Source: a virus. From it: a stretch of 52,289 nt of DNA. The DNA lies in IMG/VR virus record IMGVR_UViG_3300035502_000579, one strand, 5' to 3'. A model generated the notes under the pieces. It saw only the letters and a program-made list of their open reading frames with translations. It did not search any database and was not told the origin of the DNA. Within the stretch, counting starts at the first letter, position 1. Each line of letters opens with the position of its first letter. This document shows positions 10,069 to 12,220 of this stretch, piece after piece. The translations under genes and the position numbers were made by a program.

Positions 10069-10145
10069 GCGGGGGTGACGCAATTGGCAGACGTGGCTGT
10101 CTCAAAAACAGTTTATTACGGGTTCAAGTCCCGTCCCCCGCACCA
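10069..10145 (+). tRNA. tRNA with anticodon CAA in a type-I (short variable arm) body
   Basis: acceptor GCGGGGG/CCCCCGC, anticodon stem GCTGT/ACAGT, loop CTCAAAA, 5-nt variable loop, T-arm ACGGG-TTCAAGT-CCCGT, A73, CCA. Atypical for bacterial tRNA-Leu. Confidence 0.55.
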
Positions 10146-10155
10146 AAAATTCTTT

Positions 10156-10184
10156 TTGATTTTTATAAAAAAATATGATATAAT
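10156..10184 (+). promoter_or_regulatory. sigma70-type promoter (repeated family)
   Basis: TTGATT 10156-10161, 17 nt, TGATATAAT ending 10184; conserved leader follows. Confidence 0.55.
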
Positions 10185-10217
10185 ATTTATAGAAAGTTAA
10201 GAAAGGAATTGATATTT

Positions 10218-10358
10218 ATGTTTATTGATGATTTTGATACCCAGATTCAGTGTGATGAGTTCATCTATGAGTATGAAGAATGGCTTGATAGTTTGGGTGC
10301 CATGTGGGAAGAGCCGACTGAAGAAGAGAATGAAAAGTGGCTCGATGAACCTTTTTAA
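10218..10358 (+). CDS. small acidic hypothetical protein (46 aa)
   Basis: ATG after conserved leader and SD; stop TAA. Confidence 0.35.
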   Translation: MFIDDFDTQIQCDEFIYEYEEWLDSLGAMWEEPTEEENEKWLDEPF

Positions 10359-10487
10359 TCTAAGCTCCTATCGACAAGCGGTCTAAGTCACCGGCCTTTC
10401 GTTGGATTAGTTTAATGAAAAATTTTGGTCACTTTGGTTCAATTTTAGAAGCTCGACTTTCATATAATAATGAAAGGAGGAATAATT

Positions 10488-11219
10488 ATGGCAAGTTTAA
10501 TGGATAATTATTCTAATGAAGAGTTTATAAATATTGTTTAGTCAAGTACGTCTTATAAAGATTGTTTACAGAATCTTGGTTATCATTCTAATTCTGGAGA
10601 TTCTACAAAACGTTTGAGAGAGAAAATTAAGCAGTTAAATATTGATGTATCACATTTTACAAGCAAATAGCCAATTGCTCGTAATGAAGAAAATATTTTT
10701 GTTGAAAATTCAACTGCTGACCAAAAAACTCTTCGAAAATGGTATAAAAAAGGTGAATATACAGAATATAAATGTGTTATTTGTGGACAAGAGCCATTTT
10801 GGCAAGGTAAAGAGCTTACTCTTATACTTGACCATATAAATGGAATAAATAAAGATGATCGACTTGAAAATCTCCGTTGGGTATGTCCTAATTGTAATTA
10901 GCAGTTAGATACAACCAATGGTAAAAACATTAATCATGGTAATCACACTATTAATACTTGCATTGATTGCGGTAAAGTTATTACAGCTAGAGCTCAACGA
11001 TGCAGTGCTTGTGAATATAAACATCGTACTTCAGAAGTAATAACGGGTATAACTCGAGAAGAATTAAAGGATTTAATTCGTTCTACTCCTTTTACTACTA
11101 TAGGTAAAAAATATGGAGTAAGCGATAATGCTATTCGTAAATGGTGTGATAAATATGGTTTACCTAGAAAATCTTCAGAAATTAAGTCTTATTCTGAAGC
11201 AGAGTGGGCAAAGATATGA
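10488..11219 (+). CDS. HNH homing endonuclease (TAG-recoded)
   Basis: SD AAAGGAGG then ATG 10488; 243 aa with 3 in-frame TAG; motif LILDHINGINKDDRLENLRWVCPNCNQQLD (HNH); C-terminal zinc ribbon; sits at the edge of the tRNA array. Confidence 0.75.
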
Positions 11220-11283
11220 GTTCAAATCTTATATTCAACACCAACGCCGGAGTCGCCAGTTCAAATCTGGCTAGGAGTACCAT

Positions 11284-11359
11284 TGCGGAGTAGAGAAGTG
11301 GCAATCTCGCCGCCCTCATAAGGCGTAAATCGTTGGTTCGAGTCCAGCCTCCGCAACCA
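11284..11359 (+). tRNA. tRNA-Met (anticodon CAT; elongator or Ile2-type)
   Basis: acceptor TGCGGAG/CTCCGCA, D-arm GAGA-AGTGGCAA-TCTC, loop CTCATAA, T-arm GTTGG-TTCGAGT-CCAGC, CCA; preceded by a 3' tRNA-like fragment (11230-11283). Confidence 0.7.
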
Positions 11360-11598
11360 TCAGTCTTTGGAATGAATGACTGTTATAAAAACTTCTTTCC
11401 AAAAGAACAGCGAATAAGGGAACCGTAATATAATTTGGTTGAGATGAAATCTCCCAATTAGTGTTTGCGGCTGCTGGGATACACTACCTTTTCTATATAT
11501 TTTTGAAAGTATGTAGAACAAAAGACTAAATCCTAAGAGGAGTCTTTTACTCTCGGCATTATATGCTTGTTTTTCTACCTCTTAGTTTTTATATATGT

Positions 11599-11690
11599 GG
11601 AGGAGTACCCAAGTGGTTGAAGGGGTTGGTTTGCTAAACCAATAGGACGTGATAAGCGTCGCAAGAGTTCAAATCTCTTCTCCTCCGCCA
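11599..11690 (+). tRNA. tRNA-Ser (anticodon GCT), type II
   Basis: acceptor GGAGGAG/CTCCTCC, loop TTGCTAA, long variable arm, T-arm AAGAG-TTCAAAT-CTCTT, G73, CCA. Confidence 0.75.
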
Positions 11691-11698
11691 TTAAATTT

Positions 11699-11790
11699 GG
11701 AGGGGTCGCATAGTCTGGTCGAGTGCACCGGTCTAGAAAACCGGAGGCTCAGCAATGAGTCCGTGGGTTCAAATCCCACCCCCTCCGCCA
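11699..11790 (+). tRNA. tRNA-Ser-like, type II, anticodon AGA (unusual A34)
   Basis: acceptor GGAGGGG/CCCCTCC, anticodon arm CCGGT-CTAGAAA-ACCGG (one substitution from the common CTTGAAA Ser-UGA loop), long variable arm, G73, CCA. Confidence 0.6.
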
Positions 11791-11792
11791 AT

Positions 11793-11866
11793 GCCTCATT
11801 AGTTCAACAGTAGAACAGGAGATTTGTAACCTCCAGACAGCCGGGCGGCACGGCTATGAGGCTCCA
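11793..11866 (+). tRNA. tRNA-Thr (anticodon TGT) with non-canonical D- and T-loops
   Basis: perfect acceptor GCCTCAT/ATGAGGC, D-arm GTTC-AACAGTA-GAAC (no GG), loop TTTGTAA, T-arm AGCCG-GGCGGCA-CGGCT (no TTC), CCA. Confidence 0.5.
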
Positions 11867-11937
11867 TATTTTATTTGGGAGGTAAAAAGAAAGATGTTTT
11901 GGAAGTTGTTTTACATGATGCGATATAAGACTGCCAG

Positions 11938-12099
11938 ATGAAAAAGATTATTATGTATTTTCGTTCTTTATTTTGTTCCCATGACTTTGAATTGATTTCA
12001 ATGTATTGCTTTTGCGCTCTTGGAAAGAATATTCCGTATAAAGCAAAATATGTTTATCGTTGTAAAAAGTGCGGTCATATTCAAAAAGTAAAAACTTAA
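11938..12099 (+). CDS. small Cys/His-rich hypothetical protein (53 aa)
   Basis: ATG overlaps the TGA of a 15-codon upstream mini-ORF (ATGA); C..H..C.C..C..C.H pattern; weak SD. Confidence 0.3.
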   Translation: MKKIIMYFRSLFCSHDFELISMYCFCALGKNIPYKAKYVYRCKKCGHIQKVKT

Positions 12100-12126
12100 G
12101 GAAAAATATTTAATTTTTTCTTATAT

Positions 12127-12220
12127 ACCGGGCTACTTTAATGGTAGAAGAGCGGTCTTATAAACCGTATTAGTGCCAGATTAGCGCGTAATCTCGGTTC
12201 GAGTCCGAGGCCCGGTACCA
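12127..12220 (+). tRNA. type-II tRNA with anticodon TAT and A73 (identity unclear; Leu-like body)
   Basis: acceptor ACCGGGC/GCCCGGT, 3-bp D-stem, anticodon arm GCGGT-CTTATAA-ACCGT, 24-nt variable arm, T-arm CTCGG-TTCGAGT-CCGAG, CCA. Confidence 0.5.

Follow-up and report, generated by a model that had tools for sequence, protein, structure and literature searches.

The viral contig IMGVR_UViG_3300035502_000579 of IMG/VR carries an array of transfer RNA (tRNA) genes, three of which had been flagged in an initial annotation because their anticodons seemed at odds with the tRNA bodies that carry them, which raises the question as to whether such tRNAs alter decoding or are decaying duplicates. 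The window analysed here is the entire contig of 52,289 base pairs (bp). It looks like a portion of a large phage genome, in which TAG is read as Gln and about 19 tRNA genes are present (15 found by ARAGORN and 16 by the Rfam tRNA model). The three tRNAs, called (a), (b) and (c) below, are as follows.

12127-12220, + strand: tRNA(UAU), 94 nucleotides (nt), called by ARAGORN and by Rfam at 57.6 bits; tRNA (a)
11699-11790, + strand: tRNA-Ser(AGA), called by ARAGORN and by Rfam at 56 bits, loop CUAGAAA, anticodon at 11735-11737; tRNA (b)
10069-10145, + strand: tRNA-Leu(CAA), called by ARAGORN and by Rfam at 57.2 bits, 77 nt, loop CUCAAAA, anticodon at 10103-10105; tRNA (c)

On balance we think that all three are working members of recurrent phage classes, with (a) a two-arm decoder of AUA, (b) a Ser tRNA and (c) a Leu tRNA. 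The Rfam tRNA model, used as a covariance-model check, keeps the anticodons UAU, AGA and CAA, and the suggestion that these are possible decoding tools holds in that each falls in a class recurring in unrelated phages.

Two tandem hairpins in tRNA(UAU)

Both ARAGORN and Rfam bear out the coordinates, the anticodon UAU (loop CUUAUAA), the 24-nt insert and the A73 initially given for tRNA (a). It had also been taken for a type-II, Leu-like body, and here the reading fails at the D arm, which is of class I with a 4-bp stem and a 7-nt loop (CUUU-AAUGGUA-GAAG), unlike the Leu tRNAs of the window with their 3-bp D stem and 11-nt D loop. We rejected a bacterial class-II tRNA-Leu as its identity: the long variable region and A73 are present, and a Leu-type D arm (3-bp stem, loop of 9-11 nt, form xAAUUGGxAGA) and a Leu anticodon or Leu decoding are absent. 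The acceptor/T geometry is 7/5 (7-bp acceptor stem, 5-bp T stem) and the 3' end reads GCCCGGU-A-CCA, so that A73 and CCA are both encoded. Two tandem hairpins lie between the D arm and the T arm.

12152-12168, + strand: decoding arm of tRNA(UAU), GCGGU-CUUAUAA-ACCGU (from the Rfam alignment and the sequence)
12173-12187, + strand: second hairpin, proposed pseudo-anticodon arm, GUGC-CAGAUUA-GCGC (from the sequence and family statistics)

The first hairpin begins one nucleotide (N26) past the D stem, as a canonical anticodon arm does, and its loop (12157-12163) is canonical (C32, U33, A37) with the anticodon UAU at 12159-12161. The second lies in the 24 nt that separate the anticodon stem from the T stem. 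It has a 4-bp stem and a 7-nt loop with GAU (12179-12181) at loop positions 3-5, and the 5 nt (GUAAU) between it and the T stem are the canonical distance for an anticodon arm. When the 17-nt UAU arm was removed in silico, ARAGORN called the remaining cloverleaf tRNA-Ile(GAU). This tRNA is a class-I body with an inserted hairpin that carries a conserved GAU loop. Compared with the identity set of E. coli tRNA-Ile (the list of PMC9976931 plus general knowledge) it contains A73, A35, U36, A37, A38 and U12-A23; the determinant G34 or lysidine-34 is missing from the decoding arm, which has U34, and G-A-U is found in the second hairpin only.

Pairwise similarity identified no ancestor, the best matches being a mixture of Met, Leu, Ser and Sup tRNAs, and a scan for the exact T arm plus acceptor of tRNA (a) gave no match. 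No pairing of the hairpin loop with the anticodon loop or the D loop was consistent across subfamilies. A possible lower stem in the window hairpin (AUUA/UAAU) is not conserved, GAGGU standing there in L192, L197 and L202, where L numbers denote stretches of viral contigs or bacterial genomes collected for comparison.

A forward scan of IMG/VR, with the UAU arm and the T loop fixed and a long spacer between them, returned 86 viral stretches containing 47 unique tRNAs, and in 39 of the 47 a hairpin in the variable region shows GAU at positions 3-5 of its 7-nt loop. The hairpin loop is mostly CAGAUUA, with the variants CAGAUGG, UAGAUAA, CGGAUUA and CCGAUUA. The reverse scan fixed the hairpin loop and the T loop and left the anticodon free. 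It returned more than 120 viral stretches, and among the matches listed the anticodon was UAU in a canonical loop in 106 of 107 ARAGORN-callable tRNAs, with Y32, U33 and A37 likewise kept in 106 of 107 in a loop that the search did not constrain. In bacterial genomes the hairpin-loop pattern goes with UAU loops in 89 of 98 cases, mainly in Acidobacteriota and Rhodobacterales. Covariation was computed directly on the family: the 4-bp hairpin stem is fully paired in 95% of members as against 19% after permutation, and across 25 distinct stems, which covary freely, GAU is invariant. A73 is found in 124 of 126 family members, and 56 of 132 tRNAs of the wider family have an allo-like D arm with a tetraloop while retaining A73. 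We defined the family by a canonical UAU loop after N26, A73, and a hairpin of 4-5 bp with a 7-nt loop, GAU at positions 3-5 and 4-6 nt before the T stem, all of which are seen in tRNA (a). A covariance model for the two-arm family (R1) matched every tRNA in the loci (690 hits) and was of no use for delimiting it.

Cultured phages also carry the GAU-hairpin tRNA (Stenotrophomonas DLP6, Aeromonas 1233, Lactobacillus LpeD, 3-521, ENFP1 and Lpa804), where it is annotated merely as tRNA-Ile. The window hairpin loop CAGAUUA is identical in L100 and in the phages 1233 and DLP6. Bacterial loci with this tRNA(UAU) (L402-L481) come from Acidobacteriota, Ruegeria, Roseovarius and Sulfitobacter, the gene sometimes standing directly after another tRNA gene; in many of them the D arm is allo-tRNA-like. 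These bacterial copies may be the allo-tRNA(UAU) formerly interpreted as a Ser-inserting suppressor.

GAU is the anticodon recognised by isoleucyl-tRNA synthetase (IleRS) and we therefore looked at further long-armed tRNAs whose anticodon is non-cognate. In long-armed amber suppressors (CUA; 76 stretches) the second hairpin has loops such as CUCUGAA and CUUUGAA, which are Gln anticodon loops, and long-armed opal suppressors (UCA) with Trp-like acceptors have the loops CUCCAAA or GUCCAAA, which are the Trp anticodon loop. Unique variable regions were then tabulated for hairpins of at least 3 bp with a 7-nt loop, with the following numbers of GAU, YUG and CCA loops.

UAU tRNAs: GAU 19, YUG 0, CCA 1, of 29
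CUA tRNAs: GAU 3, YUG 31, CCA 2, of 48
UCA tRNAs: GAU 1, YUG 1, CCA 29, of 60

Nearly all counts lie on the diagonal, each decoding anticodon going with one hairpin triplet, and shuffled sequences gave no more than 1.3 in any cell. Among tRNAs that already have the cognate anticodon the numbers of short and long forms are 70 and 1 for GAU, 183 and 0 for CAU, 66 and 1 for UUG and 75 and 2 for CCA; CUG tRNAs are likewise almost never long. Deletion of the first arm in silico turned 33 of 61 CUA tRNAs into tRNA-Gln and 23 of 67 UCA tRNAs into tRNA-Trp. In L375 the two arms of the tRNA differ by one base only, a sign that the anticodon arm was duplicated in tandem. Suppressors with a second hairpin occur in viral loci between L248 and L401 (e.g. 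L249, L262, L375 and L378), the arms being nearly identical in some. In the Sup(CUA) of L036 the conserved reading of the arm is the 7-nt loop CUCUGAA and not a 5-nt loop on a stem of 4 bp, as the family scan made clear.

The second arm as a proposed pseudo-anticodon

Glutaminyl- and tryptophanyl-tRNA synthetases (GlnRS and TrpRS) depend strongly on the anticodon. A UAU tRNA is charged inefficiently by E. coli IleRS (PMC3575796). For these reasons we propose that the second arm serves as a pseudo-anticodon, the GAU hairpin probably letting the host IleRS load tRNA (a) with isoleucine. The anticodon arm would have been duplicated in tandem and one copy would have become the GAU pseudo-anticodon arm. 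The first arm, which follows N26 and keeps Y32, U33 and A37, would decode AUA, and the second, which keeps only the triplet read by the synthetase, would give IleRS the G34-A35-U36 identity that is missing from UAU, so that the phage could read AUA as Ile with neither lysidine (TilS) nor a specialised IleRS. During aminoacylation the second arm may take the position of the anticodon arm, stacked on the D stem, with the two arms swapping places. Likewise a CUG/UUG arm would secure Gln charging while CUA reads UAG, and a CCA arm would secure Trp charging while UCA reads UGA. What was observed directly is how the hairpin is built, conserved and covaries, that it goes almost exclusively with UAU, that CUA and UCA suppressors have parallel CUG/UUG and CCA hairpins, and that AUA is conserved as an Ile codon; from this we infer that IleRS reads the hairpin, and in what manner. 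The function proposed for the two-arm design appears well supported by this comparative evidence. A wider claim, that phages and some bacteria (Acidobacteriota, Rhodobacterales) use as a general trick a duplicated arm as pseudo-anticodon for IleRS, GlnRS or TrpRS and mutate the other copy to UAU, CUA or UCA, we regard as evenly balanced between true and false.

In order to follow decoding in the window phage three window proteins were aligned with 119, 120 and 9 homologues and a column was called conserved when at least 70% of it was one residue. AUA (n=29) falls in five Ile-conserved columns and in no Leu-conserved column; the corresponding Ile and Leu counts are 1 and 35 for UUA, 1 and 8 for UUG, and 0 and 17 for CUU, and UCU stands in 18 Ser-conserved columns and in one where another residue is conserved. 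Some genes have many in-frame TAGs. Those of a radical SAM maturase align with Gln at 93-97% in conserved columns, and over four well-conserved columns TAG aligns with Gln at 89-97%; TAG is therefore read as Gln. The coding sequences have evolved with AUA as Ile, UUG as Leu and UCU as Ser, a result compatible with low-level misincorporation, and the codon columns of the three proteins give no sign of reassignment beyond TAG=Gln. This speaks against the earlier idea that mismatched anticodons and bodies miscode and so tune decoding beyond TAG, and in particular against tRNA (a), whose body is not Leu-like, inserting Leu at AUA.

Codon preferences differ within the window. Genes free of TAG favour U-ending codons (AUU 79%, UCU 51% and AAU 88%, with AUA at 8% of Ile). 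Genes with TAG abound in AUA (36% of Ile), UUA (63% of Leu), AGA and AAA. Both preferences are served by the tRNAs of the array, with U34 tRNAs including Ile(UAU) for A-ending codons and Ser(AGA) and Asn(AUU) for UCU and AAU. Many of the TAG-containing open reading frames (ORFs; e.g. 1845-2765, 5983-7590, 10488-11219, 49416-50093 and 50096-51022) are homing-endonuclease-like or radical SAM.

Several points weigh against charging through the second arm. Class-I synthetases approach the tRNA with its variable region facing solvent, which would keep an arm that stays in the variable position out of reach of the anticodon-binding domain. At the equivalent of U33 the Ile hairpin loop shows A (rarely G or C), and at that of A37 mostly U; E. 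coli IleRS also uses t6A37 and A38. Relative to the E. coli set tRNA (a) has G4-C69 and G29-C41, not C4-G69 and C29-G41, a difference whose weight depends on the host. In about 20% of long-armed UAU tRNAs the loop is a different one (CUAACAA, CUGACAA), and only 3 of 24 tRNA(UAU) met incidentally in loci fetched for other reasons carry the GAU arm, which is therefore not required everywhere. Lactic acid bacteria own a tRNA-Ile(UAU) that is reportedly recognised by their IleRS, and yet Lactobacillus phages carry the hairpin. Finally, the AUA test comprises 29 codons, and Ile and Leu interchange easily.

The second hairpin could instead function outside the synthetase, as a decoy or shield against anticodon nucleases or as a docking site for a modification enzyme or phage protein, or it could be a leftover of duplication. 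Such a role would suit the RNA repair enzymes of the window (RNA ligase and nucleotidyltransferase), the duplication origin visible in L375 and the evasion of tRNA-targeting defences by phage tRNAs through changes of the anticodon loop (PMC10264068). We nevertheless hold it to be unlikely, since the loop triplet follows the amino acid that the tRNA is to insert (GAU with UAU, YUG with CUA, CCA with UCA) and is fixed while the stems covary freely; a decoy would not need to match the cognate anticodon in three independent classes and a neutral relic would not remain invariant across such divergent bodies. That the GAU, CUG or CCA hairpin truly decodes, with the UAU, CUA or UCA hairpin as an accessory and the tRNA reading AUC/AUU, CAG or UGG, strikes us as less probable still. 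The second hairpin does stand at the canonical 4-6 nt from the T stem, many of these tRNAs are called ordinary tRNA-Gln, tRNA-Trp or tRNA-Ile once the first arm is deleted, and the Gln and Trp mimic loops keep U33 and A37. Against this, the Ile-class hairpin has A, G or C for U33 on a stem of 4 bp, whereas the first arm follows N26 exactly like a canonical anticodon arm and the UAU loop retains its canonical positions in nearly every tRNA of the reverse scan. The phages concerned also own ordinary Ile(GAU), Gln and Trp tRNAs, which almost never have the extra arm, and AUA is heavily used in the TAG-containing genes of the window.

Drift of the anticodon to UAU in a long-armed tRNA of Leu or Ser type, charged by LeuRS or SerRS through its arm and A73 so that AUA would in part become Leu or Ser, is in our judgement very improbable. 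To our knowledge neither synthetase reads the loop sequence of the long arm, which would leave the invariant GAU and the CUG/UUG and CCA loops of the Gln- and Trp-type suppressors unexplained. The long variable region and A73 of tRNA (a) fit such an origin, as do the allo-like tetraloop D arms in about half of the wider family, and there are precedents in the nematode nev-tRNA-Ile(UAU), which is leucylated in vitro (PMC3333845), and in allo-tRNAs, which have predominantly UAU anticodons and insert Ser or Ala in E. coli (PMC5389517). The D arm is of class I, however, unlike those of the Leu, Ser and Tyr tRNAs of the window, the geometry is 7/5 rather than 8/4 or 9/3, A73 is nearly universal in the family where Ser-type allo-tRNAs typically have G73 or U73, and AUA coincides with conserved Ile and never with conserved Leu. 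That all three flagged tRNAs are functionless, decaying duplicates, as had also been suggested, is hardly credible. Pointing to such an origin are the roughly one-base distance from standard loops (UAA to UAU in (a), UGA to AGA in (b)) and the other oddities of the array, with its split tRNA and its tRNAs with odd T loops. All three have complete cloverleaves, encoded CCA ends, intact anticodon loops of conserved sequence and Rfam scores of 56-58 bits; their anticodons and architecture recur, with compensatory changes, in many unrelated viral contigs and in cultured phages, and the anticodons match codons that the phage uses heavily.

Serine and leucine tRNAs and the rest of the array

ARAGORN and Rfam confirm tRNA (b) as a Ser body (G73, long variable arm) with the anticodon AGA and thus A34, within the Ser box, and the initial remark that it is about one base from the standard Ser loop (UGA to AGA) is also correct. 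It is identical at 74 of 85 positions to the Ser(UGA) of a relative (L029) and at 67 of 92 to the Ser(UGA) of the window itself. A near-identical Ser(AGA), with compensatory changes in the variable stem, is found on an unrelated viral contig of 121 kb (L165), and the sampled loci contain seven unique Ser(AGA) genes, which often adjoin Ser(UGA) and Ser(GCU). Outside Arg(ACG), A34 occurs in 57 of 2,568 unique tRNAs (2.2%), Leu-AAG, Thr-AGU, Ser-AGA, His-AUG and Ser-ACU among them. The substrate loop of TadA (U33-A34-C35-G36 of tRNA-Arg(ACG)) is not present in tRNA (b), where the loop is CU-AGA-AA. A34 pairs Watson-Crick with UCU. In the window no Ser codon is used more than UCU, and no Asn codon more than AAU, the target of Asn(AUU). 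SerRS does not read the anticodon and Ser charging is therefore expected. The tRNA is best explained as an isoacceptor derived from Ser(UGA) and unusual only at its wobble A34.

The anticodon CAA and the short variable loop (5 nt, UUAUU) noted for tRNA (c) were found again; the supposed mismatch with the body was not, since A73 and a canonical bacterial Leu D arm (ACG-CAAUUGGCAGA-CGU) are kept. Of the features of a Leu tRNA it has A73, the D arm and the anticodon, and lacks the long variable arm. Relatives carry short Leu tRNAs with CAA, UAG, UAA and AAG anticodons, and in Stenotrophomonas phage DLP6 a 74-nt tRNA-Leu-CAA lies directly upstream of tRNA-Ile-TAT. In a census of the 401 viral-contig loci sampled for this analysis 120 of 300 unique Leu tRNAs (40%) are shorter than 80 nt, as are 41 of 66 with CAA, and A73 is present in 111 of 115 scorable short phage Leu tRNAs. 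E. coli LeuRS depends on A73 and on tertiary elements of the D and T loops, not on the long arm, and normal leucylation is therefore likely. tRNA (c) belongs to a common phage class that differs from other Leu tRNAs only by the missing long arm, and it most likely inserts Leu at UUG. We considered bacterial Schlafen nucleases as a cause of this loss and found no support, the reported cleavage being in the anticodon arm of class-I tRNAs.

Other tRNA genes of the array that bear on decoding or are unusual in structure are listed here.

8263-8337, + strand: tRNA-Asn(AUU), ARAGORN and Rfam at 48.8 bits, the second A34 tRNA of the array
10364-11283, + strand: split tRNA-Glu(UUC), exons 10364-10400 and 11244-11283, insert 10401-11243
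11793-11866, + strand: tRNA-Thr(UGU), Rfam at 41.1 bits and missed by ARAGORN, T-loop GGCGGCA, D loop without GG
18193-18267, + strand: amber suppressor tRNA(CUA), from a stem-loop scan and Rfam at 31.1 bits, Gln-like and of class-I length

An amber suppressor tRNA-Sup(CUA) had been named alongside the flagged tRNAs, and the stem-loop scan and Rfam agree that it exists. It has a U1.C72 mismatch, G73 and a non-canonical T-loop, GGCAGCA. ARAGORN misses it, and Rfam detects it only under permissive filters because of this T-loop. In both Sup(CUA) and Thr(UGU) the T-loops (GGCAGCA and GGCGGCA) are not UUCRANY and the D loops lack the GG pair, which suggests a remodelled elbow. Gln(UUG) and Tyr(GUA) follow each other at 13257-13330 and 13334-13423, the latter called by ARAGORN only at a lowered threshold, and the closest relatives (L012-L016) have Sup(CUA) and then Tyr at a comparable position of the array. 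The motif CUGCCAGAUGAA occurs twice in intergenic DNA beside tRNA genes (about 10028-10039 and 11934-11945); it resembles the CCAGAU core of the GAU hairpin loop, which may be chance. Candidates for a true mismatch of body and anticodon occur elsewhere, in 85-86-nt tRNAs of L018 (5876-5960), L021 (104-189) and L032 (4363-4448), which combine the anticodon UGU (Thr) with U73, a D arm like that of Ser tRNAs and a long arm ending in a GNRA-type loop.

The tRNA-Glu(UUC) is interrupted between C36 and A37 by an 843-nt insert, and its joined exons give a clean ARAGORN call. Within the insert an HNH endonuclease ORF (10488-11219) contains three in-frame TAGs. The ends of the insert are tRNA-like: its 5' GUUGGAU pairs with AUUCAAC near the 3' end, it has a T-arm-like hairpin (AUGAG-UUCAAAU-CUUAU), and its A-CCA end abuts exon 2 exactly. 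A group I intron was discarded as an explanation, the insert having no Rfam match even at E<=5, no U at -1 and no terminal G. HNH inserts homologous to it and built alike at their ends interrupt tRNA genes within the anticodon loop in L522, L524, L530, L532 and L533, these genes being read as Gln, Glu and Asp. One idea is that RNase P and 3' processing would excise the insert and the phage RNA ligase (28719-31121) would seal the exons.

Proteins encoded in the window include this RNA ligase with its intein, topoisomerase II subunits, a NAD-dependent ligase and a nucleotidyltransferase, as well as TROVE-like and vault-component-like proteins. Encoded in the window are a DUF2828/DUF7788 protein (PHROG 'RNA-binding protein') and a protein with the shoulder and repeat domains of the major vault protein; the RNA ligase ORF is broken by a LAGLIDADG intein-like segment, and a group I intron (63 bits) is also present. 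The coordinates given jointly for the DUF2828/DUF7788, vault, RNA ligase and intron features are 19848-21410, 22197-24629, 28719-31124 and 38826-39158. One such protein led to relatives, viral contigs 130-240 kb in size whose tRNA arrays are similar. Contigs with the neighbouring protein are 100% identical to the window and hence offer no variation to compare, and megablast of the tRNA region against cultured phages gave no match.

Meaning and relation to known systems

Recognition of the anticodon by the synthetase is a main barrier to codon reassignment, and a change of anticodon usually destroys charging by IleRS, GlnRS and TrpRS. If the proposal is true, a second arm with the cognate anticodon would remove that barrier in a single duplication step, which would help to explain the easy rise of stop-codon recoding and of lysidine-independent AUA decoding in phages. 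The two-arm tRNAs would then be a natural uncoupling of tRNA identity from decoding and a route to TAG=Gln, TGA=Trp and lysidine-free AUA. They would also put allo-tRNA(UAU), the function of which has so far been left open, in a new light, and provide ready-made, host-compatible scaffolds for genetic-code engineering. The cultured phages that carry the GAU-hairpin tRNA make the proposal directly testable. For annotation, callers based on the anticodon label the two-arm tRNAs correctly as Ile(UAU) yet hide the extra arm; armless Leu tRNAs and A34 tRNAs are a regular part of phage arrays, and to flag them as pseudogenes would be a mistake.

For A-ending codons the window has the same readers as T4-type phages, T4 itself carrying tRNAs for Arg(UCU), an AUA-reading Ile, Thr(UGU), Ser(UGA), Pro(UGG), Gly(UCC), Leu(UAA) and Gln(UUG). 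The AUA reader of T4 is a class-I tRNA with a modified C34. Beyond the T4 set the window phage has the A34 tRNAs, the armless Leu and the two-arm Ile. The two-arm tRNA(UAU) design is widespread and apparently undescribed: in the literature open to the search, including the review of tRNA identity PMC9976931, we found no natural tRNA with a second anticodon-like arm, and an earlier description elsewhere is possible.

Allo-tRNAs (Mukai et al. 2017, PMC5389517) share with the family the anticodon UAU, the allo-like tetraloop D arm of about half of its members and the Acidobacteriota, from which many genome matches of the GAU hairpin come. They are unlike it in their 8/4 or 9/3 geometry and in a discriminator that is mostly G73 or U73, and the interpretation given was that of missense suppressors inserting Ser or Ala; the text of PMC5389517 speaks of neither a GAU loop nor an Ile reading. 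The window tRNA (7/5, canonical D arm with a 7-nt loop, A73) lacks the defining allo-tRNA features. The nematode nev-tRNA-Ile(UAU) (Hamashima et al. 2012, PMC3333845) likewise combines a long variable arm with the anticodon UAU, but it is eukaryotic and leucylated in vitro and no anticodon-like loop is reported for it, whereas tRNA (a) is of class I with a GAU loop in a phage that has AUA as Ile. In Mycoplasma mobile (Taniguchi et al. 2013, PMC3575796) AUA is also decoded by an unmodified UAU without lysidine; there the tRNA is of class I and the solution lies in the enzyme (Arg865 of IleRS), while here it is proposed to lie in the tRNA itself. Mimics of the anticodon arm such as the thrS operator and viral tRNA-like structures (reviewed in PMC9976931) bind a synthetase through a hairpin with the cognate anticodon, but they are elements of mRNAs or viral genomes and not translating tRNAs with a second, decoding anticodon. 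A further close parallel is a pseudo-anticodon arm that was engineered into the variable arm of an allo-tRNA chassis and enhanced aminoacylation (Mukai 2020, PMC7590224, section 2.6). In that system too the variable-arm hairpin copies the cognate anticodon arm (GUG, His), and so recruits the anticodon-binding domain of the synthetase, while CUA decodes. It is synthetic, its HisRS was fused to an extra anticodon-binding domain and its effects in E. coli were modest, whereas the two-arm tRNAs described here are natural and widespread, concern Ile, Gln and Trp, and would need to work with the unmodified class-I synthetases of the host.

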